A DNA stretch of 62,186 nucleotides. Origin: Candidatus Acidiferrum sp. (GTDB lineage Bacteria > Verrucomicrobiota > Verrucomicrobiia > Limisphaerales > UBA8199). The DNA lies in contig DATKNZ010000504.1 in assembly GCA_035541055.1 (NCBI GenBank), positions 1-62,186 on the forward strand. The letters run 5' to 3'. The position numbers were made by a program, and so were the translations under genes. Shown here in pieces: positions 881 to 46,703 of this stretch (its first letter is position 1; each line of letters starts with the position of its first letter). The notes under the pieces are model-generated. The model was not told the origin of the DNA and ran no database searches. It saw only the letters and a list, made by a program, of their open reading frames with translations.

Positions 881-1101
881 TATCACGGATGCAAATCCGA
901 CACGCAAGCCGCTTAGTCCGAGAGGCTTGCGCGCCTCGCCACCTCTCGATCAACACCGTGAAATCCTATGGCCTATCGGCGATTGGCTATTGGCTATTTC
1001 CCCTCCGTGCCCTTCGTTTCCTTCTGTGTGTCTTCTGTCCCTTTTCCGGGCCGGCCTGCGCTCTCAACCCTCAACCTCCCCTTGCAGACGTCTGCACGCT
1101 C

Positions 1102-1458
1102 TCAACTCTCAACCCTCAACTTCTTCTTCGAGGGGCATTGTTCCGCCGGCAGCGGGCATTGCGGCGGCGGCTGCCCCTGCTGGCACCAGTGGCACAGCTT
1201 CCCCAGCTCCCGCTGATACTGCACCTCCTGCACCCGCAGCTCCGCCTGCTCGCGTTGCAGCGTCGCCTGCGCCACCCGGCTCTTTTCAATCCGGTTCGCC
1301 ACAATGCTCCAGAACATCGCCGCCGAAACCCCGCACCCCAGCACCAGGCCCGTCAGCCGCAGGATCAGCGACAGCCGCTCCTCGAAACTCAGCGCCACCG
1401 CGCCCGGCCCGGCAATCACGCCGATGACCGCCTTCACCATCTCATTCGTCCGCTCCAT
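1102..1458 (-). CDS. Holin-like small membrane protein
   Basis: Two hydrophobic segments, coiled-coil and basic C-terminus; last gene of the virion operon. Confidence 0.45.
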   Translation of the reverse strand: MERTNEMVKAVIGVIAGPGAVALSFEERLSLILRLTGLVLGCGVSAAMFWSIVANRIEKSRVAQATLQREQAELRVQEVQYQRELGKLCHWCQQGQPPPQCPLPAEQCPSKKKLRVES

Positions 1459-1466
1459 GCGTCTCC

Positions 1467-2306
1467 TTATTGGTACCCGGTGTAAACCGTGTAAGTGTGA
1501 ATGCCATATCTCAACCCAAGCTGGTACTCCGCCCATTGGAGGTCGTTCGTGTTCATGGTCCCGCTATACACCAATAACTCACAGAGCCCTCCAGCCATGG
1601 ACGTGTTGGCGCCTAACGCAGCGCCGCAGCCGATAGTCATCCCTCCGATCGACGTGGCGCCCGCCGTTGTGCCGACACCGCACAAGAGGCCATTGGTGCG
1701 GATGAAGGAGGCGGTCCCATTGGCGCAGAAGCTTAGGATCTGCGGCGTATTCAGCGCAAACCCTCCCGGTGGCGAGTAATACGTTCCCCCGGAATAGAGC
1801 CTCAAGGAGCAGGGCGCACCCGCCAGTATTTCGCCATAGACGCGGTTGGCGGGAGTAATCGTGAGCGTGTCATACACCAGGTTGTTGGCGGCGCCTGTGC
1901 CGTTGGTATTCAGGTTGCCGACCATCACGACCGTGATCGGCGTGCTCAGGTTGCTCAGGAACATATTGGTCATGCCTCGCGTAACCCCATCCGCCCTCCA
2001 GTACATGGCCGCGTTGGTCGTAATGAAGTTGTTGGTCCAGTACACCGAAGTCAGTGTCGAAACATTGCTGAGCACTCCGCCGAGATTGCCGGACGCATCG
2101 GCGATCCAGTTCACGCTGGCTCCACTCGCCATGTTCGTTTTGCCCGTCCAGTACCATGCGTAGGCGTTGGTCGGGGACCAATACGGCGCAGTGGGTGCCA
2201 CATACTGGCTCCCCATGAGGGCCGGGTCAGCCATCGTCCAGGCCTGCCCCACGCAACCCAGCGCGGACGCCATCAGAGCCGCGATTATTGCTGAAGCACG
2301 TTGCAT
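1467..2306 (-). CDS. Secreted LamG/concanavalin-like beta-sandwich protein (virion-associated?)
   Basis: Signal-like N-terminus MQRASAIIAALMASALGC; LamG-like C-terminus GGLCELLVYSGTMNTNDLQWAEYQL. Confidence 0.55.
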   Translation of the reverse strand: MQRASAIIAALMASALGCVGQAWTMADPALMGSQYVAPTAPYWSPTNAYAWYWTGKTNMASGASVNWIADASGNLGGVLSNVSTLTSVYWTNNFITTNAAMYWRADGVTRGMTNMFLSNLSTPITVVMVGNLNTNGTGAANNLVYDTLTITPANRVYGEILAGAPCSLRLYSGGTYYSPPGGFALNTPQILSFCANGTASFIRTNGLLCGVGTTAGATSIGGMTIGCGAALGANTSMAGGLCELLVYSGTMNTNDLQWAEYQLGLRYGIHTYTVYTGYQ

Positions 2307-4234
2307 ACGTTTGTCCTCGCATTGGGCCAGACCCAAAAGCTGATGACCGCCTCCTTGCCCGCCGGGATCGAGAGCGTGCTGGCGGACGCCTGGCCAAAGT
2401 AGAATGCCGTTGGCGGGCCAGTCCAATTGATAGCCATGGCGCTTGCGTTACTGACCGTCACCGAGATGACGTGCTGCCTCCCGGACACCAAGCCGCTAAA
2501 TCCGCTCACCGCGAAGGACTGGTTTGTCACAAAGCTCTGGTACAGGGTCGTGGAATCAATCACCTGTCCGTTGTTTGCGTTGGTAACGTGCATGCCGCTG
2601 TTCAGCACGTTGGTCTGTAGCAAACCCCATCCAGGAAGATTGTCGCTCAGCGCCGAAGACGGCACCGAGCCTGCCGTCAGGTTGGCCCCGTTCAGCGCGC
2701 TGGCGCTCGTCAGTGGGGTGAAGTTCAGCGCCCCTATCCCCACGCTCCCCGCCGTCAGGTTGCCCCCATTCAGCGCACTCGAGCCAGTCAGCGGCGTGAA
2801 ATTGAGTGCCGTCATTGGCACTGTGCCCACCGTCAGGTTGGCCCCGTTCAGCAGACTTGAGCCGGTCAGCGGCGCGACCGCCAGCGCCGTCAGCGGCACG
2901 CTCCCGGCCGTCAGGTTCGCCCCATTCAGCGCGCTGGCGCTCGTCAGGCCGCTTGCCGCAGTCAACGGCGTGAAATTGAGTGCCGTTATTGGCACCGTGC
3001 CCGCCTGGAGGTATCCCCCATACAGTGCATCGCCGGGGTGCATCACGCCCGTAATTCCACCCCCATACCCCACGATGCTGCCATCGCCCATAAACCCCGC
3101 CACCAGCGTCCCATCGTCATAGACCGCCAGGGGCATCCCGCTGCTGGCGTCACCCAACCGCAGATCAAGCACCGTGCCCGGAAAGCCGTTATTCGTCAGC
3201 ATCAGGCTCCCCCACAGAGTCCCCCCCGCCGCCGTCACCCTGCCCGCCGCCATCAGGTTGCCCGAAGGGTCCAGCGTGAGTGCGGGGCTGTTCGGGGTGT
3301 TCGCCCAATTCACCTGAATAGCATAGATGTCGTTGATTCCCGGGTGAATGGTCAGCGTATTCGTCCACGGCGCACTCTCCACCGAGCTCGTGATCGTCAT
3401 GTTCCCAACCGCCGGGGCATCCCCGGGATGCAGCACCCCATTCAATTGCGAGCCATCCCCCGTATAGCCTTGCGCGTCGACCCAATCGCTGAACTCGAAC
3501 GTCGGCCCGAAATCCTCGCTGGCGCTGTATTGGATCGAACCATTCCACCTGTCTCCATCCGCATTGGTATAGATCATGAACAAATAGACAGGCGAGCCGT
3601 TGCCCGACTCCAAGGACATGTACGGCGCGAAGTTGGGAATCCAGGGCGCGCCGGTGATCTCCGTGTACGGAATCGCATCCCCGGGATGCAGGACATAGCT
3701 CAAGTCCAGGCCCGAGCCTACAAAATTACCCGCCTGCACCTCGGCCGATCCGAAGCTGAAGCCCGCCGGGTTGATCGTCTGCTGCCAGGTATGCAGCGTC
3801 CCGCCCGGGTCGTGGTAATTCCAGTTCAGGATCGGAAAGCCCGCCGTGGTATAGCTGCCCGTCTGCAGTGTGAGACTGGGTGACCCATTCGTCCACCCGC
3901 CGCCCCCGCCGCCGCCCGAGGGCCACGTCGTCTGCGTCACGCCGCCCAGCGTGAGGCCTCCCGGTGGCGCGAAGGGTACCGTGCTATAGGCGTTCAACCC
4001 GTTCAGGAGCGTGTCCGCGTTCCCGTTCTGCTGCATGAACGCCGGCGTCACAATATCCGCCGGGTGCTTGCCCAACACGGTCTGCCCCAGCGCCGGCAGG
4101 GCGAGCGTTCCCGCCAGCCCCACCAGGAGGGCGAGCGTCCTCGCGAGCCCAACCATGCGGCCTTTTCTTTTGGCCCCCGTGCAGACGTCTGCAAGCAGCG
4201 GCACCGTGAATCCCAGGAGGAAGTTGCGTTTCAT
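2285..4234 (-). CDS. Fibre/adhesin-like protein with ~26-aa repeats
   Basis: Tandem LNGANLTAGSVPxTALNFTPLTxxSA repeats and VLHPGDA repeats; G/T/N-rich; signal-like N-terminus. Confidence 0.65.
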   Translation of the reverse strand: MKRNFLLGFTVPLLADVCTGAKRKGRMVGLARTLALLVGLAGTLALPALGQTVLGKHPADIVTPAFMQQNGNADTLLNGLNAYSTVPFAPPGGLTLGGVTQTTWPSGGGGGGGWTNGSPSLTLQTGSYTTAGFPILNWNYHDPGGTLHTWQQTINPAGFSFGSAEVQAGNFVGSGLDLSYVLHPGDAIPYTEITGAPWIPNFAPYMSLESGNGSPVYLFMIYTNADGDRWNGSIQYSASEDFGPTFEFSDWVDAQGYTGDGSQLNGVLHPGDAPAVGNMTITSSVESAPWTNTLTIHPGINDIYAIQVNWANTPNSPALTLDPSGNLMAAGRVTAAGGTLWGSLMLTNNGFPGTVLDLRLGDASSGMPLAVYDDGTLVAGFMGDGSIVGYGGGITGVMHPGDALYGGYLQAGTVPITALNFTPLTAASGLTSASALNGANLTAGSVPLTALAVAPLTGSSLLNGANLTVGTVPMTALNFTPLTGSSALNGGNLTAGSVGIGALNFTPLTSASALNGANLTAGSVPSSALSDNLPGWGLLQTNVLNSGMHVTNANNGQVIDSTTLYQSFVTNQSFAVSGFSGLVSGRQHVISVTVSNASAMAINWTGPPTAFYFGQASASTLSIPAGKEAVISFWVWPNARTNVCNVLQQ

Positions 4235-4237
4235 AGT

Positions 4238-4389: not shown

Positions 4390-4395
4390 TCCATC

Positions 4396-8016: not shown

Positions 8017-8212
8017 ATCTACTTCCATCACTCATCTTTCGGCGCCGCCGTCAACATCGGAATGCAGATTCTTCAACGCGCAATCACTTGTGCAGGCGTC
8101 TGCACGTTCGACCGCGCCTCGGCTATCGGCTCTTAGCTAGCGGCTATCGGCTATTGGCTATCGGCTATCCCCCCTCAACCCTTCTTCGTTTCCTTCATTT
8201 CCTTCTGTGAAC

Positions 8213-8551
8213 TCAGTGCCGTGCAGGCGTCCGCAGGTCCTTCCGTTGGATGTTGGATGTTACACCCAATCTCACGTTGTGCCGCTGCCTCCCAAACCGC
8301 CGCGCCTCCTCGTGCGTCGCCACAAACACATCAAACCGGTCATCGTAGATGCGGGCCAGCCGGTCGGTCACCACCCGCTCCCCTATCCCTTCGATATACA
8401 CATGCGTCCCCAGCGGTATCCACCGCGGCCCGGCCACCGTCAGCCCCGCCACGGGCTGGTGCCCGTTGGCGGCTGCCCGGTGCGCCTCGCCGCAACACCG
8501 CGCGCAATGGCAGTAAGCGGTGATCGTCGCCGCCGTCAGGAGCCAGCTCAT
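8213..8551 (-). CDS. 3D (Asp-Asp-Asp) domain peptidoglycan lytic enzyme
   Basis: TAYC...VAGPRWIPLGTHVYIEGIG.RVVTDR...FDVF...EARRFGRQ matches the 3D-domain pattern. Confidence 0.8.
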   Translation of the reverse strand: MSWLLTAATITAYCHCARCCGEAHRAAANGHQPVAGLTVAGPRWIPLGTHVYIEGIGERVVTDRLARIYDDRFDVFVATHEEARRFGRQRHNVRLGVTSNIQRKDLRTPARH

Positions 8552-8572: not shown

Positions 8573-9433
8573 TCAGTTCCTCCTGCCCCGGCGTGTGTCC
8601 CATCCGCTAAACCCCACCGCGTCCTCGGGCGCGAGCTGCGACCGCCAGGTCCCGCTCTGCAGCCAGAACAGGAACGCCGCGTAGCAATACATCGCCGCCG
8701 ATACAAAGTCCTTTTTGCTCAGGGACGAGAACTGCCGCGCATTCCGTTTGGTAAACGCCCAGGTGCCATCCGGCTTCGTCGCCACGATGATCTTGGTGAG
8801 CTGGCTGGCCAGCGCGTCGAGGTTCTTGAGCGCCCACATCCGTTCTTCCGGCCAGCGTTCCACCTCAGCCCGCTTTTCGACCATCCAGTCGGCCACGCCC
8901 GGGGGCAGCGCCCACAGCCCGTGCTCGATGGCGTTCTTGGCCGTCGAATATAGCGCGTCGTTCAGGTTGTCGTCGCCCGCCAGCTCGGGCCACATGCTCT
9001 CCACTCCCGGGTCGCCGCGCTTGAACATGTGCAGGATGAAATCCGCCCGCGCCACCAGCGTCGGCCCGTCCACCAGGTCGGCAATGGGTGTTGCGTGCGT
9101 CTCGATCCCCTCCAGCAGTTGCTTCGTCGCGATCAGCTCGCGCTTGATCAGCACCCCGCCCCCATTCGGGTCCATGCAGATCCGCGCAAACCGGAACGCC
9201 CGGTGCAGCCCGTGGATGATCCCCGACCATTGCCGCGCCGTCGCCTTCTGCCGCCACGTCAGCCGCCGCCCGTAGATGAAATCGAAGTACCAGTCCTCGG
9301 CGGCCTCGGGCATCCCCTCCGCCGTGCGCGGCGTCGCCACACCGACCACCAGCGCCCCGTCATCGCTCTTGTGCGACTCCGAAGGCGCCGGGTCCACCCC
9401 GAGGAAAAACGCAATCCGCTCCCGATCTAACAT
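8573..9433 (-). CDS. Terminase large subunit, C-terminal RNase H-like nuclease domain (separate ORF)
   Basis: FFLGVDPA, SDDGALVV, ICMDPNGGG and KKDFVSA motifs. Confidence 0.75.
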   Translation of the reverse strand: MLDRERIAFFLGVDPAPSESHKSDDGALVVGVATPRTAEGMPEAAEDWYFDFIYGRRLTWRQKATARQWSGIIHGLHRAFRFARICMDPNGGGVLIKRELIATKQLLEGIETHATPIADLVDGPTLVARADFILHMFKRGDPGVESMWPELAGDDNLNDALYSTAKNAIEHGLWALPPGVADWMVEKRAEVERWPEERMWALKNLDALASQLTKIIVATKPDGTWAFTKRNARQFSSLSKKDFVSAAMYCYAAFLFWLQSGTWRSQLAPEDAVGFSGWDTRRGRRN

Positions 9434-9466
9434 CTTGGCTATTGGCTATCGGCTATCGGCTATTGG

Positions 9467-10507
9467 CTATTGGCGATTGGCTATGCCCTCCTCCCCTTCG
9501 TTCCCTTCGTTCCCTTGGTGTAGAACCTCCTCATACATCCTCGCGCTCAGTACCGGCGTCACATGCCGCTTGCGTCCGATCTCCACCGCCAGGTTCACCG
9601 CCTCCTCCGTAAACCACCCGTCGCCGTCCAGCCCCCAAATCCCCAACCCTTGGCCCAGCCATTCCGTCTTGCTGCACACATTGCGCTTGTTGGCGATTGT
9701 GCCCTCGATGCGAAACTCCTCCCGAAACGTCTTGCCCGTGTGGCACATCAGCCCCGAGTAATCCTTGTAGGAATACGAAATGTTCGCATACGTCGGGTTG
9801 CCCCGGTCGCACTGGCGCTGGTGCCGCTGGTACCGGGCGTAGGACGGATGCCGCCGCGTTTGCGCGTGCGCCGTGAACAGGATGTGGTTGCCCCAAATCG
9901 GGTGGTTCTGGTTCCAGCAGGGACGGCTGGTGCGGTCAATGAGCTGCTTGTTGATGCCATCGCTGCTCGCGTCCACGTGCGTCCATTCCTCCACCACCAG
10001 CACGTTGAGACGGATCGACCCTTGCGTCACCGCGTCCTTCATGAAGGACGGCGCCGGCATCAGCACCTTGCTCCCGTCGCGGAAGAACGCCTTGTAGCAC
10101 CCCGCCCCGTGTGCCGTCCCGTCACCGTCCTTCTGGTCGCCGTCGTCCAGCCGCGGCGGCCCGAGCTGCGCCCGGTAAAGCGGCGCCTGGATCTTCGAGA
10201 AGTATTCCCAAAACGTCAGCTTGCCCTGCTCGAATACCGGGTAATAGATCGCAATCTCCTGGTCGGGAATCAGGATCGCCCGCAGGTTCAGGAAAACCCA
10301 GTCCACGATGGTCTTGCCCGACGAAACCCCCGACGAATCAATCACGTTCTGCACCCACCAGTAGTAGCGGAGCCGCAGCGCCTGGAACGCGTCGAGCCGG
10401 ATGCCGAAGATGATCTCCGCAGCCATCACCGGGTCGCACAGGAAATCCGCCCACATCGTGGGCGTAATCCGCAACGACGGCGGCACCGATGGAACCAGAA
10501 TGTTCAC
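9467..10507 (-). CDS. Terminase large subunit, N-terminal ATPase domain (separate ORF)
   Basis: LDAFQ adenine-binding motif, Walker A SSGVSSGKT, Walker B LVVEE. Confidence 0.8.
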   Translation of the reverse strand: MNILVPSVPPSLRITPTMWADFLCDPVMAAEIIFGIRLDAFQALRLRYYWWVQNVIDSSGVSSGKTIVDWVFLNLRAILIPDQEIAIYYPVFEQGKLTFWEYFSKIQAPLYRAQLGPPRLDDGDQKDGDGTAHGAGCYKAFFRDGSKVLMPAPSFMKDAVTQGSIRLNVLVVEEWTHVDASSDGINKQLIDRTSRPCWNQNHPIWGNHILFTAHAQTRRHPSYARYQRHQRQCDRGNPTYANISYSYKDYSGLMCHTGKTFREEFRIEGTIANKRNVCSKTEWLGQGLGIWGLDGDGWFTEEAVNLAVEIGRKRHVTPVLSARMYEEVLHQGNEGNEGEEGIANRQ

Positions 10508-10886
10508 CTCGGCTATTGGCTATCGGCGATTGGCTATTCCCTGTCCGCCATCGGCCCTCACCTCTCAACCCACCTCGCGCAACACCGACTCCCATGTAAA
10601 CCCCGCTTTCTCCACCCACCCCTTCACGCCGCGCACCGCCGTCACACAAGCTGCCCGCCGCCGCCGGCAATCCCGGAACGCCCCGCGATCAAGCACCCTG
10701 TCTTCGGGAGGGCGAGCGTCCCCGCGAGCCCTGACTTCTCCCCGCTCCGCATTCCGGCCTTCGGCGCCAGCCCAACCAATGCGTCGCCCTTGGCTATCGG
10801 CTATCGGCGATTGGCTATTCCGGTCGGTCCGGTCCAGCCAGACGTTGCGTTTGTTTGTGTTACGGGGCGTATGGGGCTTATCCGTC

Positions 10887-12128
10887 TTATTTCGTCTCTT
10901 GTTGTACATGGTTCTCTTTCGATTGCTCCGGCCCGGCGGGTTTCGTCAGGTCCGGTAATTCTTCGTATTCCCCCTCGGGGCCGTCTGCGTTGAGGTCCGG
11001 CAGTTTCTTCGCCCCATCCGCTTCCCAGGAAGCCTGGTAGGCTTGGGTCCACGCCTCGCGCACATGCCGCAGCCCGGCGTGATGCAGCTCGGGGGCCCAG
11101 CGGAAATCCCACAAGTGCGCCTTGGCCTCCGTTGCAAAAAGCACAAAGCCCGCGCTGTAGTGCGGCACCGGGTTCTGCACGCTCGTGCGGCAGTCAATCA
11201 GCACCTCCGTCAGCGTGAAGATGCCGTCAATCAGCTCCGTCCCGCCCCGCGCCTTGTATTCCTGAATGGCCTTCGTCACGTCCCCCAGCGACCCGCCAAA
11301 ATTGTACTTCCCGGCAATCGCGCCCGCCCACGGGCATAGCTCCTTGATCTGCGCCAGCAGCTTTTGATACCGCTCCGATAGCGCCTGCCTCACCTTCAGG
11401 TTCGTATGCCACTGGCTGTCTCCCGGCTTGCATTTGTCCGGGTCGTTCATCAGCGCGTCGAGCTGGTAAATCCGCAGCTCCGTGATCAGCGTGTCCCGCG
11501 CCAGCACCGCCGCGAACTTCTCGTTCAGCGTCTTGCTGTAGTCCTGCACCCGTTGGCAGAACCACGCCTTCTCCGCCGACGAGCCGAACTTCAGCGCAAA
11601 GCCGTATTTCTCCAGCAGCTCCTCCTCGCTGAACAGCCCCGTCGGCTTCGGCGTGGCCTCCACCGGCGCGGGCGCTTCCTTCGGCCGCAACGCCTGCCAG
11701 GCCCCGCGCACCGCGTTCAATTCATCCCCGAGCTGCTTCCGCGTCAGGCCCAGCGCCTCCTGCAATTCCGGCCGCGTCCAGGGCCGCAAATCATCGAGCG
11801 ACGTCGTGGGCGGCGGCACCAGCGGCTGAATGCCGAACAGCCGCCGTGTCACCAGCCACCCCCGCTCGTTCACGTGCGCCGCCTGCACAAACTCGGCCAG
11901 CTCCTCGGCCTTCACCTCGAACTCGGCCGTCAGCGCATCAAACCGCCCGCAACGCCACGCCTGCCCCTCGTACCGAAATTCCACCAGCGGGTTCACCGCC
12001 GCCGGCGCGGACGGGGGCCCAGCCGGTGCAGACGTCTGCACGCCGCCCTCGCCGAAGACCAGTTGCCCTTCCCCTTGGCTATTGCCTACTGGCGATTGGT
12101 TATTCCCCGTCTTCATGCTCGGTTGCAC
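10887..12128 (-). CDS. Phage hypothetical protein (HTH-like segment; terminase small-subunit position)
   Basis: 413-aa ORF with phage-like codon use; WTRPELQEALGLTRKQL resembles an HTH. Confidence 0.6.
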   Translation of the reverse strand: MQPSMKTGNNQSPVGNSQGEGQLVFGEGGVQTSAPAGPPSAPAAVNPLVEFRYEGQAWRCGRFDALTAEFEVKAEELAEFVQAAHVNERGWLVTRRLFGIQPLVPPPTTSLDDLRPWTRPELQEALGLTRKQLGDELNAVRGAWQALRPKEAPAPVEATPKPTGLFSEEELLEKYGFALKFGSSAEKAWFCQRVQDYSKTLNEKFAAVLARDTLITELRIYQLDALMNDPDKCKPGDSQWHTNLKVRQALSERYQKLLAQIKELCPWAGAIAGKYNFGGSLGDVTKAIQEYKARGGTELIDGIFTLTEVLIDCRTSVQNPVPHYSAGFVLFATEAKAHLWDFRWAPELHHAGLRHVREAWTQAYQASWEADGAKKLPDLNADGPEGEYEELPDLTKPAGPEQSKENHVQQETK

Positions 12129-13077: not shown

Positions 13078-13093
13078 TGTTCCACGTGGAACA
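13078..13093. promoter_or_regulatory. parS: Canonical chromosomal-type parS site
   Basis: TGTTCCACGTGGAACA, a perfect 16-bp palindrome matching the widespread bacterial parS consensus; intergenic. Confidence 0.8.
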
Positions 13094-13146
13094 TTCTCGA
13101 CGGTGACCGGGGGCAGGCACCCCCGCCGCGCACGCTACGATGAGGC

Positions 13147-13252
13147 TTGACCTTTTCGCACCAGAGCAGGTAAGCTGCGCCTTATGAAGGTCCTGGCGCA
13201 AGCGGGGGTCCGCGCTATACGAACCAATGGTCTGTATAATCAATAGTTCGGC
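13147..13252 (+). promoter_or_regulatory. Pc-like promoter + attI-like site (copy B)
   Basis: TTGACC-18 nt-TAAGCT, TATGAAGGTC, GGGGGTCCG, TATACGAACCAATGGTCTGTATA, then GTTCGGC (13246-13252) 6 nt before the cassette ATG. Confidence 0.7.
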
Positions 13253-14577: not shown

Positions 14578-14670
14578 CGGCGGCCCGCATCTGTTCGCGA
14601 CTCCCGGCGCTTGCGTCCCTGTCGTCGCTTCCGTCCCTTGGCTATCGCCTCCCTGCAGACGTCTGCACGC

Positions 14671-23412: not shown

Positions 23413-23607
23413 GTTTCGCTGGTGCGCAACGCTGGTTGCGAGCGGGTTGTCGCGTGCACATGCGACAACTACATGACTTTCGCTTTCGCTGGCAATAACA
23501 AAATGAAAAATTCTGCAAAAACCCTTTGCCAGCCTCGGCTTCCAGGTGTATAAACCTTGGCAAATGAGCAACTAACAACGCTCAGTGGATAAGAAGCACC
23601 CAACGCT

Positions 23608-29297: not shown

Positions 29298-29444
29298 TTC
29301 CCTGATCAGCGTGCAGGCGTCTGCACGCCTTCAATAGCCGCCCCGACCCAAGGCTACGCCCAGCGCCTCCATCCCCCGATGGGGGCGCTGGCGCGTACGG
29401 GTGTCCCACCCCCTTCCCGCAAACGCAAACAACACAAACCCATT

Positions 29445-31918: not shown

Positions 31919-31962
31919 TGTCCGTAAAACCGACACACAAACAACAACACAACACAATCCGT

Positions 31963-36021: not shown

Positions 36022-36726
36022 TCAGCAGCTTTGGTTTTGGCACCGGTGCAGCAGTTGTGCGAGGTGCGAGCTCACGCCGACCGCGAACTGTTCGAAGAAG
36101 CGGCGCTGGCCCTTGATTTGTGAGCTACTGAGGTTCGGGGACGCGTCCTCGTGGAGAATGTTGTTCCTCATCGCTGTCACTGAGTTAAAGATGCCTCGAA
36201 AATCGATCATCGCCTCAACGGGAGCATCTGAGGACAGGGTTTCAACTCGCTCAGCCAGCTGCACGACATCAAAAATATCCGGAATTCCAAGCTTCTCGAA
36301 CAATTTGATTAATTCCCCCTCGCCGTGTCGGCCAAAGGCAAGCTTCGCGTGTAGGGCCAGATCATCAAACCTCTCCGTAGTGGCCCATAATGTGCCAAGC
36401 CGCCGAAACAGCTGAGCAGCTTCTTCTTGATTCCCGGGTTGGCGCAAGCGCTCCAGTTGTGACAAGGCGCCGAACGTATGTTGCAGTCGAAGCCCTGTTG
36501 GAATCCGATCGCAGGGTAACCGGCATTCGTTGAGCTTAAAAACGAACTCCTCTACGATTGATTCCGCAAAGGACTCGAATTTTCCGGCGATGAGGAGGAG
36601 GGCAGCTTTGTTAAAGGTCGAAGATTTCTGACGATCAGAGCTTGCCGCGTCCGCGGCTTCGCAAAGGATGTCCACCTCTGCCAAGCTGTCCGTAAAACCT
36701 GCCAGGGCTTCAAAATGTCCCGTCAT
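36022..36726 (-). CDS. HEPN-domain protein (RiboL-PSP/MAE_28990-like)
   Basis: KFESFAE helix and RNNILH (RxxxxH) motif. Confidence 0.8.
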   Translation of the reverse strand: MTGHFEALAGFTDSLAEVDILCEAADAASSDRQKSSTFNKAALLLIAGKFESFAESIVEEFVFKLNECRLPCDRIPTGLRLQHTFGALSQLERLRQPGNQEEAAQLFRRLGTLWATTERFDDLALHAKLAFGRHGEGELIKLFEKLGIPDIFDVVQLAERVETLSSDAPVEAMIDFRGIFNSVTAMRNNILHEDASPNLSSSQIKGQRRFFEQFAVGVSSHLAQLLHRCQNQSC

Positions 36727-37841
36727 TGCAGCAGCTTGGTCAGCTCACGACACCAGGTTCTCAACCTATATTCGAGCTGCTTTTTGTCAGAAGTCGAAAT
36801 GGTAATTGCTGAATTAAAATTAGCGTCTTGGGTTGGGAGCGTCTGCAGGAGCGTTTTGATTCCTTCCTTCTTCTGTTCGAGAACGGCCTGGTCAAAACTC
36901 TCAAAGCTTATCATTACGACGTCCATTATGGCCCTGTTGGGACGGTTGTCGAACGAGCCTTCCGTATTGACTTTCCTGAAGGCGTTCGGGCCAAAAACAC
37001 TGTAGACCTTATCAATAGTCTTTGTGAATTTGTCCCGATAGCGGGTGATGGTCTCTTCGCCCACGTTCTTCCGCGCATCCGCGAAGGTGTTCAGTGTTCC
37101 CTTCATCTTCCCGGTATACTGTTTAACCTCTCCGGTGGTGGGGTCGAACCCCTCGGACAGCGCCAGATATCGCAGGATTAGCTCCTCATCATCCATCCTC
37201 TTGTGGGGTTTTGTCAGCCCCAGGATCTCCAAAAACCTCTTGTTGAGTTTGAGCTCTTTCAGGAGCTTGTTGAGGCTGCCGCGGAACAGGCAGTTTCTAA
37301 GTTCCTGTTCCTTCAATTTGATGGCCCCTCGATTCAGCCGCATAAAAATGTCGTATTTGATCTCGGGGTGCGATTCCTTGAATATGAGGACGATGCGCAG
37401 TATGCCATTCCGCAAAATGCGAGCTGCTTTGGGGTTCAGCGTAGCGTATTTGGACCGATTGAGCTCTGTCAGCACTTCCAAACCCCTGAGCGCGAATTCA
37501 TTGGTAAAGAAGCGTCGGAGCGAATACAGCCGCTGGAGTCCGTCCACGACGTTCCACGTACTGTCGTCGTCCTCGGCAACGTAGACCACCGGAATCGGGA
37601 CATTGAGTAGGATAGATTCGATGAGCAGGGAGGCCTTTTTATTGTCCCAGACGTAATTCCGTTGGTATTCGGGATCGAGTTTGATCTCACCTGTATCGAC
37701 CATTGTAACGACGTCCCCGATGCTCTTATCATAGGCCTGCGTGCGCAGATAGCGCTGCTCCTTCGGGATGTCGTCTGAAATCGTCTCGGCTTCTGTGTCT
37801 TGGCTGTCGGCGAACGTGATATCTGGATCTTCTTTCGGCAT
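36723..37841 (-). CDS. DUF262 (GmrSD-type ParB/Srx fold) protein
   Basis: PEYQRNYVW, LIESILLNVPIP, VVDGLQRL, IFMRLNRG. Confidence 0.92.
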   Translation of the reverse strand: MPKEDPDITFADSQDTEAETISDDIPKEQRYLRTQAYDKSIGDVVTMVDTGEIKLDPEYQRNYVWDNKKASLLIESILLNVPIPVVYVAEDDDSTWNVVDGLQRLYSLRRFFTNEFALRGLEVLTELNRSKYATLNPKAARILRNGILRIVLIFKESHPEIKYDIFMRLNRGAIKLKEQELRNCLFRGSLNKLLKELKLNKRFLEILGLTKPHKRMDDEELILRYLALSEGFDPTTGEVKQYTGKMKGTLNTFADARKNVGEETITRYRDKFTKTIDKVYSVFGPNAFRKVNTEGSFDNRPNRAIMDVVMISFESFDQAVLEQKKEGIKTLLQTLPTQDANFNSAITISTSDKKQLEYRLRTWCRELTKLLQ

Positions 37842-39568: not shown

Positions 39569-39901
39569 GGCGCGACCTTATCAAGGGGGCGCCGCGGGCG
39601 TCAACCTGTAAACCGCCCAGGCAGCAGCCCGCCAAGCGCCGCCGCCACACTCAACCCTCAACCCTCAAGCCGGTGTGCAGACGTCTGCACCGATCCGATT
39701 TGTCTGATTCGTCCGATTTCTGTATGAGCAAACACAAAGCCCCCCAATTCGAACTCCCTCACGCCGAGCAAGTCTTCAACCTCCAATCCGAAACCACGGT
39801 GGCCGGCACTCGCCTCCAACTTGAGCAGCGCGACCTCCCGGCGGGGGTCGCGGGAACCGACGCCCGGCAATCGCTACTGCCGCTTCCCGCCACCAACCGC
39901 T

Positions 39902-42900
39902 TTACAACTCAAACGCGCCTTTGAAGACCGTCACCGGCTGGTCCATCCAGAATCGTTTGTAGTTGCCCTCGGGGCAGACATTGCGGTCTTTGGTGTAGAG
40001 GAAGAGCCTGACGGTGACTTTGACTCCCTCGTGGTCGAACCGCAGGATTTTTCCTGTGGCGTCCTCGAAGAGGCGGCGGTAGCCGTCGATCTTGCGCTCC
40101 CAGTCGACTTGCTCCATGCCCTTCGGGTCCAGGAACAGGATGGTGTAGGTGTCACCTTTCTGGCCCCAGAAAATGAAGTCGGGGATGAACCGAGCGATGC
40201 GGTTTTGTTTCGGGTCGTAGTAGGGGATGAATGGCGTGTCGAGATACTGGTCGAGCTTGCTGAACGTCCACCAGTCCAGTCCGCGGAGCACACATTCGGG
40301 TTTCCTGGTGTAGTCGCGGAGGGCGTTGAGGAAGCGCACCTCGCTGTCGGTGTCGATGATGTGGCGGATGTAATCGAGGCGCTTGCCTTTGGAATAGACG
40401 GCGGGCAGATAGTAGTGGTTGGCGAGGTACTCGAGGTTGAGTTCGTCGTTGTAGGTCTGGCGCCCGGTGAGCCCGCGATCTTCCATGAGGCGGGCGGCTT
40501 CCGTGAAGTCAAACTCCCCCTGGTTGTAACGGTCCTCGATGGCTTCTCGCTCCTTGATGCCCTCTGGTGTCTGGGAGAAAAGCACCCGGTCAACACGGCG
40601 CTGGATTTCCTCCGCGTGGGGTTTATCCACGGACATGCGCTGGAAGTGGACGATGTCCTTGCCCTGCTCGAGCGCGCGGATTCGGTCAAGCTCTTTGGCC
40701 CGGAGCCCGAAGTAGTCCATGACCCTGCCGACCATGACATCGAGGTTGCGATAGCTGCGGGCGCTGTGTTTGGCGTAGTAGGTGTCGGATTGAATGAGGC
40801 TGTCGCGGAAGTGCTGAACCTTGCGGGGCAGCGAGCCGTGCGCAAGGAGTAGGACTCGGTCGTCCACAACGGCGTTGCCGTAGCAGTCCAAAAGAGAGAA
40901 GTCGTCTTCCCCGATCTCAAATTTGGAGGGCGCCCGCTCTTCGATCAGGGGGAGGCCGTGGTCCCGATACTGCGGAACCAGAAGCAGCCGCCTGGTGGCG
41001 TCGGGGTTGAGGTCCAGTTTCAGGAAATCCTGAATGGCGGGCTTCTCCTTCTTCAACTCCTCAAGGACTACCTGGAGGGCCTCGCGGTTCGTGCCTAAAA
41101 CGTACAGGGTTTCGGGAGCGACGGCCAGGGGACGGAGCCTACGGAAAAGGTTCTTGTCGTCGAATGCGTCAATAAGTTCTTCAAAGCGCCGCCGCTCGCG
41201 GTTCCATGATTGCACGCGGACCCCGCGGCCAACGGATTGAAGGATGAATTTCTTGGCGTCCTCGCCGGTGCCGATGTTGACAAAATTGATGACGTTGGGG
41301 CGGTTGGAGTCCCAGCCTTCGTAAAAGGTGCGGGAGCCCATCAGGATGTTGATGGAAGATTCCGGGTTGTTCAGGGCGGTGAAGAAGCTCTCGCTTTCAA
41401 GGGTTTCCTGGTAATCGAAGCCGGTCAACTGACTGCGGAGCCAGTCGGTAATGTCGCCAATCTTGATGAGGGCGAACGGCCGGGGAGAGGTCTTCATCTT
41501 GAAGGCGATTTCCTGGTGGTTGCCGGGCCGGACCAGGACTTCGATGTCGCCGCCGCCTTCAGACTCGAAATTGTACACCTCGCGCCACACGTCGCGCACG
41601 GAAAGGGCGTCAATGTCCGCTTTGGCGATGGCGACTTTGCGGTTGATCTCGTAGAGGAAGGGCGGTTCGTCTTTCAGTTCCTCCCAAAGCTCGGCCTTGG
41701 CTTCATTCCAGATTTTGAGCGGCACCTCTCCGCGGCCGATGGCGAGGACCTGCTGGAAGTAGAGCTTCAGGTCCGCGTCCTCCGTGTTCACGGAATTGAC
41801 CAGGGTCAGCAACATGGGGTGGTGGTAGAGGTCGGGCACCGCGGCGGCAGTCCGCAATTCCCGCACCTTCCGCGCGGTGTAGGCGAGGAGCAACATGCTT
41901 TTGGCGACAACCTTGCGTTTCTCGTCGTCTGAGTAGTCGCCGGTGCCGCCCCGTTTTTTGAATGCCGCCAACTCCTGTCGCAGGACGGCGATGTGCTTGC
42001 CGTAGCCGCGCTCGATGAACTCGGAGAGGTTGAAATTGTGGACCGTGGTCGCCAGGTCGAGGGTATCGGTGAAGGTGGCGGAGAAATTGAAGAGGAAACC
42101 AGCTCGGCTGAGAATGGTGTAGATGTGCTTGCGCTTGGAGTCCTCGGCCACGCCCTTGTGGGCCTCGTCCAGCAGTACATACCACCGCCCTTCGTTGTCG
42201 TAGTTGCGGAAATCCACGATGCGCTCCTTGTGCTCATCACTGACATTGTCAGAGCGGTAATAGAAGACGCGGAGCGTGGTGTCCCTGCCCAGCAGGCCGC
42301 CGGGCGTTTCGCGTTTGGCCTCGGGATACTCGCGCAGCTCGCGCAACTCGATATGTGCCGGTGCGTCCGGGGCGTGGTTGTATTCGGCAATGGTCCTTTG
42401 GAACTGCTCGATCAGGTCCTCTCGGTGGGTGAGCATCAAGACGTCGCAGACGGGAATCTCGGCGCGCCGCATGAGCAGGTGAAGGATTTCGAGGAGCTTG
42501 ACCAGGACGATGGTCTTGCCGCTGCCCGTCGCCATCCAGAAGCCCATGCGGTTGCAGAGGTCGGCGAAGTCAATGACCGGCGCATCTTCATCCAGTGGAA
42601 AGTACTCGGTAACAAGCGAGCGGAGAGCGAGTTTGGTCCGGGCCAGGGACAGATCCAGGGATTGGCGCTCCCGGGGGGAGAGGAGCATGCCGTCCTGGTA
42701 CCACTCGACCATTTTCGCCTTGCGGACCTTGTCCGCGCCGGCGTCCTGGCCGGTGGCGAAGTCATCGAACTCCTCGTAGTATTTGAAGAGGACGGCCAGG
42801 GCGAGTTTGAGGGCCTGCTGCTGATAATCCCAGAGGTCCTTGGCCGGGGAGAAGCGGGCAAGGTCGAACGTGTTCCAGTTGGCTGGAAGCGTCTCGTAAA

Positions 42901-42940
42901 CGACCCTGGTGGCCAAGTGTTCGAGTGATTTCAGCGGCAT
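39902..42940 (-). CDS. res: Type III restriction endonuclease Res subunit
   Basis: MATGSGKT, LDEAHK, FSATF, EGWD, QSVGRGVR, C-terminal FIPDF..LDPKG nuclease. Confidence 0.92.
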   Translation of the reverse strand: MPLKSLEHLATRVVYETLPANWNTFDLARFSPAKDLWDYQQQALKLALAVLFKYYEEFDDFATGQDAGADKVRKAKMVEWYQDGMLLSPRERQSLDLSLARTKLALRSLVTEYFPLDEDAPVIDFADLCNRMGFWMATGSGKTIVLVKLLEILHLLMRRAEIPVCDVLMLTHREDLIEQFQRTIAEYNHAPDAPAHIELRELREYPEAKRETPGGLLGRDTTLRVFYYRSDNVSDEHKERIVDFRNYDNEGRWYVLLDEAHKGVAEDSKRKHIYTILSRAGFLFNFSATFTDTLDLATTVHNFNLSEFIERGYGKHIAVLRQELAAFKKRGGTGDYSDDEKRKVVAKSMLLLAYTARKVRELRTAAAVPDLYHHPMLLTLVNSVNTEDADLKLYFQQVLAIGRGEVPLKIWNEAKAELWEELKDEPPFLYEINRKVAIAKADIDALSVRDVWREVYNFESEGGGDIEVLVRPGNHQEIAFKMKTSPRPFALIKIGDITDWLRSQLTGFDYQETLESESFFTALNNPESSINILMGSRTFYEGWDSNRPNVINFVNIGTGEDAKKFILQSVGRGVRVQSWNRERRRFEELIDAFDDKNLFRRLRPLAVAPETLYVLGTNREALQVVLEELKKEKPAIQDFLKLDLNPDATRRLLLVPQYRDHGLPLIEERAPSKFEIGEDDFSLLDCYGNAVVDDRVLLLAHGSLPRKVQHFRDSLIQSDTYYAKHSARSYRNLDVMVGRVMDYFGLRAKELDRIRALEQGKDIVHFQRMSVDKPHAEEIQRRVDRVLFSQTPEGIKEREAIEDRYNQGEFDFTEAARLMEDRGLTGRQTYNDELNLEYLANHYYLPAVYSKGKRLDYIRHIIDTDSEVRFLNALRDYTRKPECVLRGLDWWTFSKLDQYLDTPFIPYYDPKQNRIARFIPDFIFWGQKGDTYTILFLDPKGMEQVDWERKIDGYRRLFEDATGKILRFDHEGVKVTVRLFLYTKDRNVCPEGNYKRFWMDQPVTVFKGAFEL

Positions 42941-42947
42941 AACGGCG

Positions 42948-45626
42948 TCACACTATAGGGCCCCAGAAAATGAGCGGCTTGATCAGACGCCAGTCCGGCC
43001 TCTTCAGGCTCTGCTTGCTACCATCGGCAAACTCGACTTCGTCTTCGGTGATGCGTTTGATCCATTTGCCGGTGACGCAGGACAGTGTTTCCGCCAGGTC
43101 AATGTCTGGATAAAGGCGGTCGAGGTGGATGTTGACTTCGTCCTTTTTGTAATCGAGTTCGATGGCCTTGGCCATCTTCAGGTCACGGAAGAAAACGTAC
43201 TGGCTGTAGGGGTCGGTTTTCGTGTTGCGGAATAGGTCTTCGTCTTCGGCATAGCAGGCGCTCGCCAGTGTCTCGGGATACTGCTCTAAGCGGTAGCACT
43301 TCAGGAAATGGCTGCACCCTTTGCCACCAGCTGCCTTCCCGGACTTCCACTTCTCGCAGAACATAACCTTTTTCACTCGGGGTACAATGACAGAGTCAAA
43401 GTACGCAGCCATTTCCACGAGAAGGTACCGTCTTCGGATAGCATCATTGCGGTTCAGGTTCAAAACTGCATGGGCCGTTGTTCCTGAGCCTCCGAAAAAG
43501 TCCACGCAAAGGCCACCATCGAGGAGCCCACTGACTTTTAGGCAATCCTCAACGAGGTGTACTGATTTTGGTGACGTGAACAAATTGGACTCTCCCAGAA
43601 TCTCCGTGAGCAGGTTGGTTCCATAATCTGTCGCGGAGTACTCCTTCTTGTCCCACCATGTAAGGGGTAGCATGCCTTCACGGTTCATCCTGGATTTCAT
43701 GTAAATCCCCATGTTTCCCGTCCGGTCTGGGCGCGCCTCGAAATCCGACAGCTGCTTGATTAGGCTCTTGTGTCCCCACTTCCACCGTTTCTCGTGTCCA
43801 TCCTCGTTGATGGGGAAAACCACGACTTCCGCAGGGGTTGGCTCCTCGAGAATCTTCCATTCCTCTATTGATTGGATCCACTCCATTTTGGGCACGCGGA
43901 TTTCGCGCTCAGGCGAGACATAAATCGGGTAATAGAGCCTACGGCGTGCCTTCCTGTTTGCGGCGGCCCCTCCATGCTTGCGGAAGTTCACCCATTCAAA
44001 TGCGCTTTCCGCGTCTGATTCTTTGTACCGGGCTATTTGTTTTTCGGTCCTCGCGAGCCGGCCAATAGCTGCGGCCTCTGAACTTCCCGCGAAGACCGCG
44101 TAATCATGGGCAATGGAGAACCCCTTAACTGTGGAACGCCCCGAAGGATTGCTTCGGACAGCGACGGTTCCCAACATTGCTTCGCCGCCTCCGAAGATTT
44201 CTGCCATTAGCTCGCGGAGGCGGTGGTACTCTGAGTCATCTATCGCAACGCAGGCCACCCCCCAGCCGGCAAGGAGATCGCGAGCGAGCCGAAGCCTGTT
44301 TTCGATGAGCGTGAGCCACGAGGAGTGCTTGTACTGATTAATGTAGTCAATTTCCGAGCCCTTCGTATTGTAGGGCGGGTCGATATAAATCGCCTGAGCT
44401 CTCTCGCAGAACTTCCGCGAGATTGTCATGAGTGCTTGGTAGTTCTCGCTGTTGATCAGACGGCCATCTAATTCTTCATCAAGATTGTCAAAAAGTCCAA
44501 GCAGCCGCAGTTCCAGCGACCTGAAATGACGGGTGTCGAGTGGGAGACATGTCCAGGCGCTGGCGACCTTTCGTTCCTTGCCGCGCCCGGCCATGATGTC
44601 CTTGGGATCGAAGTCGGCCTTGACGATGCCAAGGTCGCGCCATTCTTTGACCTGATCTTTGATGCCCTGGTGTTTGAGAATGTCGGCGATCAGTTTGAGG
44701 CCGGCGGGCTTGGCCGCGAGGCGCTCCAGGGTGATGACGTAGAAGGAGCCGCGGACAAATTTTGGTTTGTTCCAGATGCGGACCAGCTCGTTCTCGAACT
44801 GGCCGATGAAATCGACGAGCTTGAAGGCGATTTCCTTCAGGACCTGAAGCTGGTGAATGCGGGGGGCCGACCAAGTGGTGGTGTCCTTGAACACGTACTG
44901 GTACATCCAGAGATCAAACTGCTGGCGGAGGAAAGCCCCGGCATCCTTGTTAATGAAGTAGTCCACCTCGCTCTGGCGGGCGAAAACCTTGAGGGCCTTG
45001 TCGAGGATGGGCTCCTTTAGCGGCTGGTCGGCCTTTTTCAGGGCCTTGAGGATGTCGTCAATCTTGGTGATTCGGCCGCGTTCGGAATAGGTGACCAGGA
45101 GTCGGATGGCGCCGTTAGGCTCGACCTTGTCGAGGGTGAAAACGAGTTCGCGCTTTTCGTTGGCCTTCTTGTGTTCGAGGCCGGCGCAATCGAAAAAGAA
45201 GGTGTGGCCGTCCACGTCAACCTTGAGATCGCGGAAGAGGCGGTCGGTTTTGACGTAGTAGAGCATGTGGGTTTTCCAGAAGAGGACAACGTCCTGCTCG
45301 TCGGTATAGACCTTTTCGTACACGCTCATGTGCTGGGGCGTATAGGCGAAGCAAATGGAGCCGGAACGGCTGAAGTAGCGGCTGAAGAAGGAGTAGAGCT
45401 TGTCGAACAGCTCCTCGCGGAACTCGGGAAAATCCTTCAGGGCGTTGGCGATGTCCTGCATGAGCGCCGGCTCGACCACTTTCTGGAAATAGGCGGCCTT
45501 GATGCGCATGAGATTGATGAAGCCGGATTGGCCGTCCACCTTGACCCCGATAAAGATGTCGCGCATGGCATCGAGGAAGCGGCGCTCCTTGGGGCCGGGT
45601 TTGACGGTAGCGGATGTGGCGGTCAT
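42948..45626 (-). CDS. mod: Type III R-M DNA methyltransferase Mod (long N-terminal extension)
   Basis: IYIDPPYN and DFFGGSGTT; adjacent to res. Confidence 0.92.
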   Translation of the reverse strand: MTATSATVKPGPKERRFLDAMRDIFIGVKVDGQSGFINLMRIKAAYFQKVVEPALMQDIANALKDFPEFREELFDKLYSFFSRYFSRSGSICFAYTPQHMSVYEKVYTDEQDVVLFWKTHMLYYVKTDRLFRDLKVDVDGHTFFFDCAGLEHKKANEKRELVFTLDKVEPNGAIRLLVTYSERGRITKIDDILKALKKADQPLKEPILDKALKVFARQSEVDYFINKDAGAFLRQQFDLWMYQYVFKDTTTWSAPRIHQLQVLKEIAFKLVDFIGQFENELVRIWNKPKFVRGSFYVITLERLAAKPAGLKLIADILKHQGIKDQVKEWRDLGIVKADFDPKDIMAGRGKERKVASAWTCLPLDTRHFRSLELRLLGLFDNLDEELDGRLINSENYQALMTISRKFCERAQAIYIDPPYNTKGSEIDYINQYKHSSWLTLIENRLRLARDLLAGWGVACVAIDDSEYHRLRELMAEIFGGGEAMLGTVAVRSNPSGRSTVKGFSIAHDYAVFAGSSEAAAIGRLARTEKQIARYKESDAESAFEWVNFRKHGGAAANRKARRRLYYPIYVSPEREIRVPKMEWIQSIEEWKILEEPTPAEVVVFPINEDGHEKRWKWGHKSLIKQLSDFEARPDRTGNMGIYMKSRMNREGMLPLTWWDKKEYSATDYGTNLLTEILGESNLFTSPKSVHLVEDCLKVSGLLDGGLCVDFFGGSGTTAHAVLNLNRNDAIRRRYLLVEMAAYFDSVIVPRVKKVMFCEKWKSGKAAGGKGCSHFLKCYRLEQYPETLASACYAEDEDLFRNTKTDPYSQYVFFRDLKMAKAIELDYKKDEVNIHLDRLYPDIDLAETLSCVTGKWIKRITEDEVEFADGSKQSLKRPDWRLIKPLIFWGPIV

Positions 45627-45874
45627 TTCTTTGGTTCGCGGGGGGCTTTATACGGGGTGGGTTCCTCGGCGGCAAACATGGTTTGTTCTGATTGGCGGGC
45701 ACTGCGGGGCATGCCTGGCAGGCGCGGTTGGCCCCGCTCGTCCATGTATTCCTGGGCATGCTTGATGAACCAGTCCTTGAGCGACAGCCCCTCCGCCGCC
45801 AGTGCGGAGTGAAGATCGCGCTTAAGGCCTGGATCCACTTCGATAACGATTCTGCCAGATGGACCTCGTGCCAT
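45623..45874 (-). CDS. Ribbon-helix-helix regulator heading the R-M operon
   Basis: RIVIEVDPGLKRDLHSALAAEGLSLKDWF; ATGA overlap with mod. Confidence 0.7.
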   Translation of the reverse strand: MARGPSGRIVIEVDPGLKRDLHSALAAEGLSLKDWFIKHAQEYMDERGQPRLPGMPRSARQSEQTMFAAEEPTPYKAPREPKK

Positions 45875-45929
45875 ACGGTGGTGTTATGTCACATAAGGCA
45901 CATGACATGCAAGCCTTTCTTTTAACCAA

Positions 45930-46703
45930 ATGCAAACACGACACGACCCCCTGAGTACCGTCGCCACCGCGACGGCCGAACCCACCACCAAACCCCTGCA
46001 GACGTCTGTAGGCCCGACCGGCTCGGTCCCCGCAGCGCCTCGCAAGGGCCTAAAAAAGGTCTCCCTTGGCGGCATCGCCAAGAAGGAGAGTGACACCAGC
46101 AACAAATACCCCGTGTTCCCCGACGAGACTGGGGCCGCAGGCGAGCTGGCCGCCCGCATCGCCGAACGCCAGGAGCAGTTCGACGCCCTCAAGTCAAATT
46201 TGGAAACAGACAAGGCCGAACTCGCCCGCGTCCACATCCGCCCCTGGTATCTGCGCCATTTCCATCGCAAGACCGACGTCCCCAGCTCGGTCCTCGTCAA
46301 CTGGGCCTCTCAACCCTCAACCCCCAACGCTCAACCCTCCCGCGGCACCGTCCGCGTCACCGTGAAGGAGCAATACTACAGCTTCCCCAGCGAAGACGCC
46401 TTCCTGCCGGTTCTCGGCGAGGACTTGGTTGCCAGGTACTTCCGCCAGGCGTTCGAGCTCAAGATCAAAGGCGATAAGCTCCCGAGCGACAAAGCCGGCG
46501 AGTTGGTCGAGAGGGTGCAGGCCCTGTTCGCCGAATACGGCTGCACCGACGCCCTCGAAGCCAAGGAATGCGTCGTCCCGGTGGACAACTTCAAGGCCCT
46601 CCGGTTTGCCGAGATGGACCTGGAGCATTCGCTCGCCTTGGAAACCGTGGGCGACAAGGGCCTCACCGAATGCTCCGTCAGCACCAAGGGCGTCCGCAAA
46701 TAG
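45930..46703 (+). CDS. Phage hypothetical protein
   Basis: 257-aa ORF with in-frame palindrome and TCAACCC inserts. Confidence 0.7.
   Translation: MQTRHDPLSTVATATAEPTTKPLQTSVGPTGSVPAAPRKGLKKVSLGGIAKKESDTSNKYPVFPDETGAAGELAARIAERQEQFDALKSNLETDKAELARVHIRPWYLRHFHRKTDVPSSVLVNWASQPSTPNAQPSRGTVRVTVKEQYYSFPSEDAFLPVLGEDLVARYFRQAFELKIKGDKLPSDKAGELVERVQALFAEYGCTDALEAKECVVPVDNFKALRFAEMDLEHSLALETVGDKGLTECSVSTKGVRK

Follow-up and report, generated by a model that had tools for sequence, protein, structure and literature searches.

The stretch of DNA analysed here (the window), 62,186 bp long, comes from a wetland metagenome, where it forms contig C504 in a draft genome of 6.8 Mb. Most of it appears to belong to a prophage that carries many copies of a short palindrome and encodes a long ParB-family protein (parB; 31918–33729, + strand). 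Here we describe the palindromic sites, the prophage and the protein, and weigh the evidence that the palindromes are the loading sites of this protein, which comparisons across phage genomes make probable.

Dispersed palindromes in the window

A first-pass annotation of the window had listed 17 dispersed copies of the 14-mer TGCAGACGTCTGCA, and every one of the 17 starts proved correct: eight copies are exact, seven have one mismatch and two have two mismatches, compared with a mean of 0.17 sites (maximum 2) in 100 rounds of shuffling of the window. The 16-bp form, GTGCAGACGTCTGCAC, is palindromic with an ACGT centre. By gene calls, nine of the 17 copies are intergenic and eight are in frame (a mixture that the annotation had also described), the latter in two different frames. 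The in-frame copies comprise three exact sites (4180–4193, read as ADVCT close to the start of ORF 2285–4234(−); 12027–12040, read as VQTSA in ORF 10887–12128(−); and 22594–22607, read as VQTSA in ORF 21703–23571(−)), three sites with one mismatch (30594–30607, read as MQTPA in ORF 30335–30670(+); 32880–32893, inside parB itself; and 45997–46010, read as LQTSV in ORF 45930–46703(+)) and two with two mismatches (8222–8235, the final codons of a 3D-domain gene at 8213–8551(−); and 35843–35856, read as LQTPA late in a serine recombinase gene at 35080–35883(+)).

Several of the intergenic copies sit 4–18 bp beyond stop codons. Exact intergenic sites were found at 1083–1096, 14654–14667 (4 bp beyond the stop of ORF 14671–15414(−)), 19240–19253 (18 bp beyond the stop of a primase-like gene, 19271–21706(−)), 27593–27606 and 39676–39689 (between two cargo genes, for DUF4760 and type III Res; counted as intergenic, the overlap there being with a weak ORF only), and sites with one mismatch at 8091–8104, 18904–18917, 26034–26047 and 29312–29325 (15 bp beyond a stop, ahead of a RadC-like gene). 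To the right of 46010, the 12.7-kb host flank included, there is no word with two or fewer mismatches (a single three-mismatch word lies in the host flank at 55874), and the type III restriction–modification, GmrSD/HEPN, BspA, DUF7677 and YcxB cargo ORFs hold no sites, in agreement with the earlier description of a site-free flank and cargo. The widest gap between sites in the window, 6.3 kb, covers the restriction–modification genes.

The prophage and the spacing of its sites

A second contig of the same assembly, C220, holds 16 further copies, all in its first 42.4 kb, together with a tape-measure gene and a tyrosine integrase gene that adjoins an intact tRNA-Leu(CAA) at C220:44225–44311. 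The first 41 bp of this tRNA gene recur in the window at 49468–49508 (− strand) in the orientation expected for attL/attR, marking the right end of the prophage. On the strength of this repeat, C220 (reversed) and C504:1–49508 were treated as one prophage, which they appear to be, of approximately 94 kb and inserted in tRNA-Leu; neither the C220–C504 join nor the excision joint was seen in the sequencing reads.

The genome-wide count that the annotation had proposed as a check separates the element sharply from its host. The 93.8-kb element has 33 sites (14 exact, 14 with one mismatch and 5 with two; mean gap 2.8 kb) and the remaining 6.71 Mb has two exact, no one-mismatch and 11 two-mismatch words, so that 28 sites inside stand against 2 outside at one mismatch or fewer. 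Both of the exact outside copies are on contig C241, where what is left of a broken copy of this parB lies next to them. Within the element the sites are spaced more evenly than random (coefficient of variation of the gaps 0.50, compared with 0.96 for random placement; none of 20,000 simulations was as low), and the flanks of the copies are unrelated to one another. Among 300 genomes of the same order, none had more than two matches to a degenerate form of the motif.

Inside the prophage, at 13078–13093, there is also a perfect host-type chromosomal parS, TGTTCCACGTGGAACA, the other two perfect copies of which in the assembly lie within a gidA/mnmG-like gene on contig C2; no copy within one mismatch was found in the 67 related phage records described below. 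Through this site, host ParB may also be drawn to the prophage.

A long ParB-family protein

The parB product (603 amino acids; 588 from the second Met) combines a ParB_N CTPase fold and a helix–turn–helix (HTH) with a four-cysteine (Cys4) motif. It scores above the cut-offs for PF02195 (ParB_N; 72.6 bits) and PF17762 (HTH_ParB; 29.1 bits) and for TIGR00180 (117 bits, cut-off 58). Its structure model (pLDDT 89, with a long helix at residues 427–465 in the monomer) is closest, by Foldseek and VIA-align, to Spo0J, Noc, Caulobacter ParB and KorB (for example, VIA-align Z = 15.3 to Spo0J 1vz0, with a root mean square deviation of 2.3 over 166 residues; Foldseek E = 3 × 10−10 to KorB 8qa9). Beyond residue ~245, a part that was barely tested, no clear fold match and no enzyme domain were detected. 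The nucleotide-motif residues (GxxR and ENxxR; G95, R98, E129, N130 and R133) and the four cysteines (C291, C294, C325 and C330) are invariant in 65 of 65 relatives. By predicted fold and HTH, the protein belongs to the ParB/RepB/Spo0J family, for which nucleotide specificity cannot be reliably predicted from sequence (PMC12704722). Scores for the Noc model (TIGR04285; 119.8 bits, cut-off 315) and the PRTRC ParB model (TIGR03734; 89.1 bits, cut-off 278.6, N-terminal part only) fall below threshold, and, judged by membership, the prophage system lies outside ParABS, KorB, Noc and PRTRC while probably working like KorB–OB.

The lack of a ParA, remarked on in the first-pass annotation, holds across both contigs: matches to PF13614 fall on five other contigs and none on C504 or C220 (the gap between these two being uncovered), and none of five related phages has a ParA. 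The ParA-binding motif (L/F/I)G(K/R)G(L/F/I), taken from PMC12704722, is absent from the first 120 residues of all 65 family open frames. An H-NS domain is present in 15 of 105 homologues, and an FtsK-gamma domain in 3. The neighbours of parB in the window are RadC-like, recombinase, AAA and ligase-like genes.

The same word in other phages

The palindrome had been called element-specific, which is too narrow in the wider sense, as many unrelated phages have it too. In an exact scan of IMG/VR, the real word was found in at least 135 stretches, multi-copy records among them, compared with 29 hits, all single, for a reversed control palindrome; an IMG/VR scan with a single ParB protein gave no matches. 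The 16-mer is dispersed in many ~40-kb phages, and five multi-copy IMG/VR records all encode this same long ParB and have 6–8 sites each. Two cultured temperate phages, VarioGold and Aval, for which Variovorax and Acidovorax are named as hosts, have 6 and 5 sites, respectively, one of those in VarioGold lying at the start of the ssb gene. In both, parB is part of a leftward operon between repressor and integrase, a position that, by lambdoid architecture, suggests expression early in lytic growth.

To ask what else these phages share, we searched 80 element proteins by tblastn against 67 phage records (mostly chosen through ParB, 5 through the motif): ParB matched 64 of the 67, and the next best protein matched 2. 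By six-frame tblastx, bins covering parB matched 50–64 records and the next bins at most 19, and parB is thus the only element protein widely shared with motif-bearing phages. Of the IMG/VR matches listed for the exact 14-mer, a further 41 distinct records, each 18 kb or longer, were examined, 30 of which encode the ParB family (25 of 36 after removal of five with hits in or at parB), as against 1 of 17 reversed-control records (two others excluded), and that one with a weak N-terminal match (P = 1.5 × 10−5). The flanks of 80 family genes contained 45 external hits in 1.15 Mb (1 control hit), compared with 2 hits in 2.0 Mb around 160 ordinary ParB loci from metagenome/GTDB alignment scans, which served as a negative control only; no close relatives of the element were obtained from those scans. 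A search of whole records for 50 of the 80 family genes found a match in 35. Among 40 phages chosen by primase, the 29 with parB averaged 3.8 sites and the 11 without it 1.8 (P = 0.002); a terminase-based control set had too few long records. In 31 records with at least five sites, spacing was collectively more even than random (combined P = 8 × 10−7; median 6.7 kb), in a test that merged sites less than 200 bp apart, which favours evenness. All P values across phage records overstate significance, related phages not being independent. One of 400 same-order genomes (G028) has the C-terminal part of the family, with no sites in its 8.6-kb contig.

The site copy inside parB

The annotation had placed one of the copies within parB, where it is indeed found with one mismatch (32880–32893), read as GCT ACA GAC GTC TGC ACA (A-T-D-V-C-T) and running into the third Cys. 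The position of this in-gene site is conserved across the ParB family: the 16-mer spells NGT GCA GAC GTC TGC ACN, which encodes the conserved (S/G/R)-A-D-V-C-T ahead of the third Cys. Across 77 non-redundant genes, the Ala is encoded by GCA in 38 of 48 cases against a background of 13% (P = 1 × 10−24), and the preceding residue by AGT in 30 of 42 cases for Ser (7% background), GGT in 9 of 13 for Gly and CGT in 5 of 6 for Arg, while in the remaining 24 conserved Ala columns GCC/GCG is preferred or a GCA bias is lacking. Because rare synonymous codons are kept in the in-gene copy, the codon record indicates that selection in parB acts on the DNA word and not on the peptide alone. A parS inside Bacillus spo0J provides a precedent for an in-gene site.

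Co-variation of site and protein

Co-variation of the motif with the ParB HTH across phages, the other comparison that the annotation had proposed, points to ParB as the binder. The sixth base of the site can be predicted from a single ParB residue, the equivalent of Caulobacter ParB 200, in a set of 43 records that have ParB and three or more external sites: all 25 records with Ala there have GTGCAGAC halves (G), all 10 ParB-bearing records with GTGCACAC halves (C) have Phe, Tyr or Asn, and Pro, His, Ser, Glu or Arg accompany the G type in 6 records. In ParB and Noc structures, the adjacent residue 201, which contacts DNA and helps to set specificity, lies close to site position 6 (PMC7383237), which makes the pairing of the 200-equivalent with this base spatially plausible. 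On a ParB tree built with the recognition helix and in-gene codons masked, the site variant changes twice, compared with five times on a primase tree and seven on a terminase tree (both of which also include two parB-less records); by this count, the variant follows the ParB tree rather than those of primase and terminase.

A de novo palindrome search of 14 records with no or one site found dispersed candidates in two, G327 and G344. Both have altered recognition helices, and their palindromes (CCACGGAATTCCGTGG-type and GTGGTCACGTGACCAC, respectively) are each present three times, including once inside parB, making these records candidates for orthogonal protein–site pairs. Palindromes from the same search in G346 and G303 were rejected as dispersed sites, being clustered like repressor operators. 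We also rejected Val at the 173-equivalent as the explanation of the relaxed outer base in the element, as G301 has Glu there and keeps the G.

Sister elements in the same genome

A sister element on a third contig (C484:334–24186) encodes orthologues of 10 element proteins at 48–83% identity, a histone-like protein included, and has neither parB nor any site at two or fewer mismatches. None of five positions orthologous to in-frame sites holds the palindrome, and the SNF2 gene still encodes ADVC, with three synonymous changes that destroy the palindrome; one three-mismatch word remains, at C484:13979 (0.08 expected). The pattern fits decay of the sites following loss of parB, as a single event. 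On C241, the start of parB in the fragment at 9752–11713 is followed directly by a site, as would be expected had the central part of the gene been deleted.

Two other proteins that had been suggested as binders fared poorly. The histone-like protein (26425–27381) has a 67% orthologue in the site-free C484 element, and the XRE-like protein, the gene for which has its nearest sites ~1.0 kb upstream and ~2.0 kb downstream, had no tblastn match in the 67 related phage records; both are disfavoured.

Cargo and other features of the window

Defence cargo occupies 36022–37841 and 39902–45626(−), with a HEPN (RiboL-PSP) and GmrSD_N pair and a type III restriction–modification pair. A dispersed repeat of 100–240 bp (window 726–966 and 13141–13243; C220 6279–6518 and 36422–36601; C398 4366–4510) adjoins cargo arrays of DUF7677 and YcxB genes separated by inverted repeats that may resemble integron attC sites; of its four copies in the element, three have a palindromic site no more than 120 bp away. 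Two adjacent ORFs at 8573–10507(−) look by eye like a terminase large subunit split in two, one ORF corresponding to the ATPase part (with a Walker-A-like SSGVSSGKT) and the other to the nuclease part, with no match in Pfam, PHROG or NCBIfam. A contig from sequencing run X1 joins 47322 to 48631, skipping a BspA leucine-rich-repeat gene over which coverage is near zero, and this cargo gene seems to be polymorphic. Beside the att site, a 223-residue ORF (48643–49314(+)) with weak matches to ATP-dependent DNA ligases has orthologues on C484 and C241.

Discussion

Confinement of the sites to the element, their even spacing, the one gene shared with other motif-bearing phages, DNA-level selection on the in-gene copy, and co-variation of site and protein together identify the prophage's own partner-less ParB-family protein as the predicted binder of the palindromes, and we hold this reading with considerable confidence. 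The suggestion in the first-pass annotation that the sites are cognate to this protein thus finds support, from the confinement count and the co-variation in particular.

A number of observations weigh against it. Sites occur in records without a detectable ParB (five in G473, four each in G495 and G528, and three each in G486, G503 and G512); several of these records are truncated, although G503 is 95% complete and G473 is not truncated, its left arm being complete and parB apparently lost relative to an 80–90% relative, such that a recent loss is plausible in this case. Conversely, external sites are missing for six ParBs whose helix is ordinary (G307, G311, G315, G323, G488 and G028). The in-gene copy is within two mismatches in just 42 of 79 genes, and seven genes without it still have at least three external sites. 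Within the co-variation set, one Phe-bearing record has G where the Phe/Tyr/Asn class would predict C and another is tied; the G/C variant arose approximately once on the ParB tree, and independent-pair tests (three to five in the same direction, none opposite) were not significant. A split of records by HTH type made a priori was also not significant (39 of 51 compared with 16 of 28; P = 0.12), and the cleaner split (1 of 11 compared with 54 of 68) is post hoc, with 7 of the 11 sharing one helix type. A pooled search of five records with this altered helix type revealed no convincing alternative palindrome. Finally, the motif GERRxRA usually has a closing Arg, present in 59 of 65 family members, and the window protein has Leu in its place (position 100).

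The parB-less phages would be accommodated if another protein bound the sites (a stoperator-type repressor, a small product of the early operon or a protein of the host) and parB merely carried one target copy. Many intergenic copies lie just beyond stop codons, as roadblock sites might, and very small or diverged ORFs could have escaped the gene caller that yielded the 80 proteins searched. We consider this improbable, given that neither tblastn nor tblastx revealed a second widely shared protein, that the phages seem to have hosts in different phyla (Variovorax and Acidovorax compared with a host that gene content suggests to be one of the Verrucomicrobiota), that the motif is missing from the host chromosome, and that the site variant tracks the ParB tree. 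The idea that the repeats are by-products, stemming either from the coding of a widespread peptide or from a mobile repeat, draws on the encoding of A-D-V-C-T in the conserved Cys motif and on the few intergenic copies within 120 bp of the ~240-bp dispersed repeat, and has already been largely refuted: the parB copy keeps rare codons, over half of the window copies are intergenic, the in-frame ones use two frames, the flanks are unrelated, and the real word far outnumbers its reversed control in IMG/VR. Its likelihood is minimal.

Two further alternatives accept ParB as the binder and differ in purpose. A genuine role in segregating phage DNA, once excised or during replication, with ParA or SMC borrowed from the host, would suit a fold nearest to those of Spo0J, Noc and Caulobacter ParB, a ParA-like gene in the host, and the perfect host-type parS in the prophage. 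It is nonetheless unlikely, as motif-bearing phages integrate, neither the element nor the five phages have a ParA, the 65 family members lack the ParA-binding motif, and the sites are spread evenly rather than clustered as in a centromere. Marking, compaction or shielding of phage DNA (for self-recognition, or as a guard against host defences or nucleoid proteins), with no direct role in transcription, is a minority possibility of more weight: spacing is even and promoter-independent with many copies in frame, parB sits beside genes for RadC-like, recombinase, AAA and ligase-like proteins, and some homologues have H-NS or FtsK-gamma domains. Against it, no enzyme domain was detected in the barely tested C-terminal half, and the studied orphan ParBs with dispersed sites, KorB and BisD, regulate transcription (PMC11790492, PMC12409273).

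Among known systems, the closest in kind is KorB–OB of plasmid RK2, in which a protein with a ParB CTPase fold and an HTH acts at a palindrome that is not part of a centromere and reaches up to 1.5 kb away by loading and sliding (PMC11790492). In both systems the palindromes are dispersed over the element, their predicted reading by ParB here being supported by co-variation. The prophage system differs in belonging to integrating tailed phages, in its site sequence, and in having 33 even copies, approximately half of them in frame; the phage proteins are 600–950 residues long with a Cys4 motif, one site copy being fixed in the codons of that motif, and no counterpart of the ParA-type partner or of the KorA co-repressor that accompany KorB was identified here (KorA was not searched by profile). 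BisD–bisS of ICEclc likewise pairs an orphan ParB-like CTP clamp with an integrated element and an extra domain, and its bisS sites lie within genes (inrR and ssb), much as a VarioGold site lies at the start of ssb; BisD, however, slides ~50 kb from two 23-bp sites 2 kb apart, whereas the phages have 5–33 even sites of 14–16 bp and their ParB lacks a known BisC-like partner (PMC12409273). ParB–parS and Noc–NBS supply the closest solved structures and likewise have a 16-bp palindrome with an ACGT centre, and residue 201 lies beside the co-varying residue (PMC7383237); the phage site differs from the host parS TGTTCCACGTGGAACA, ParA and its binding motif are missing, and the Noc score is 120 against 315. 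Mycobacteriophage stoperators are also many copies of one short word across a temperate phage genome but they are oriented, asymmetric sites to which the immunity repressor binds, whereas the phage sites are palindromic and track ParB (PMC9283540).

What the bound protein would do is the least certain part of our explanation. By analogy with its family, a ParB dimer would bind each palindrome through its HTH, close into a nucleotide (CTP)-gated clamp and slide outward, as do KorB and BisD, such that clamps loaded at evenly spaced sites would coat the whole phage genome; KorB acts up to 1.5 kb from its operator (PMC11790492), and a similar reach combined with 2.8-kb spacing would give near-continuous cover. 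The in-gene copy would ensure that parB travels with one cognate site, and further sites would then accumulate in each new phage. Given binding, we put the chance of transcriptional control or counter-silencing at a distance during early phage growth at not quite even, favouring it because parB lies in a probable early operon, there is no ParA, and 15 of 105 homologues have an H-NS domain; such control could take the form of KorB-like repression or of VirB/BisD-like activation or counter-silencing. Protection or compaction, again given binding, is a lesser possibility, and segregation through host factors a rather unlikely one. Of the three functions put forward in the first-pass annotation (partitioning, compaction and global repression), partitioning is therefore the least supported.

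Phage-encoded ParB-family proteins that bind phage DNA have been described before, N15 SopB with its dispersed sopC sites and P1 ParB among them. N15 and P1 persist as plasmids and encode a ParA partner, whereas motif-bearing phages integrate via tyrosine integrases and none was found with a ParA. P1 ParB is also named in a survey of 80,326 ParB homologues, ~1% of which are prophage-encoded and among which orphans are common and mostly uncharacterized (PMC12704722). Our literature search, which included the exact 16-mer and lay largely outside the subscription literature, found no published description of such a palindrome/ParB system, and palindromes, operators and inverted repeats go unmentioned in the main text of the VarioGold paper.

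Tentatively, and with somewhat less than even confidence, we propose a widespread, cross-phylum, one-gene, ParA-less clamp module of integrating phages that carries its own site in its Cys4 codons, seeds even copies in any phage that it enters, coats the phage genome early in infection and controls expression, possibly countering H-NS-type silencing, with a residue-to-base code for recognition. If true, natural variants of the module would represent such a code and possibly orthogonal protein–site pairs. A large phage ParB family gains a probable DNA target and a predicted residue-to-base switch, for which VarioGold, a cultured temperate phage with a culturable host, is suited to direct functional test. 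The system would supply compact protein–site pairs for DNA labelling and would extend CTP-clamp gene control from plasmids and integrative and conjugative elements to integrating phages.

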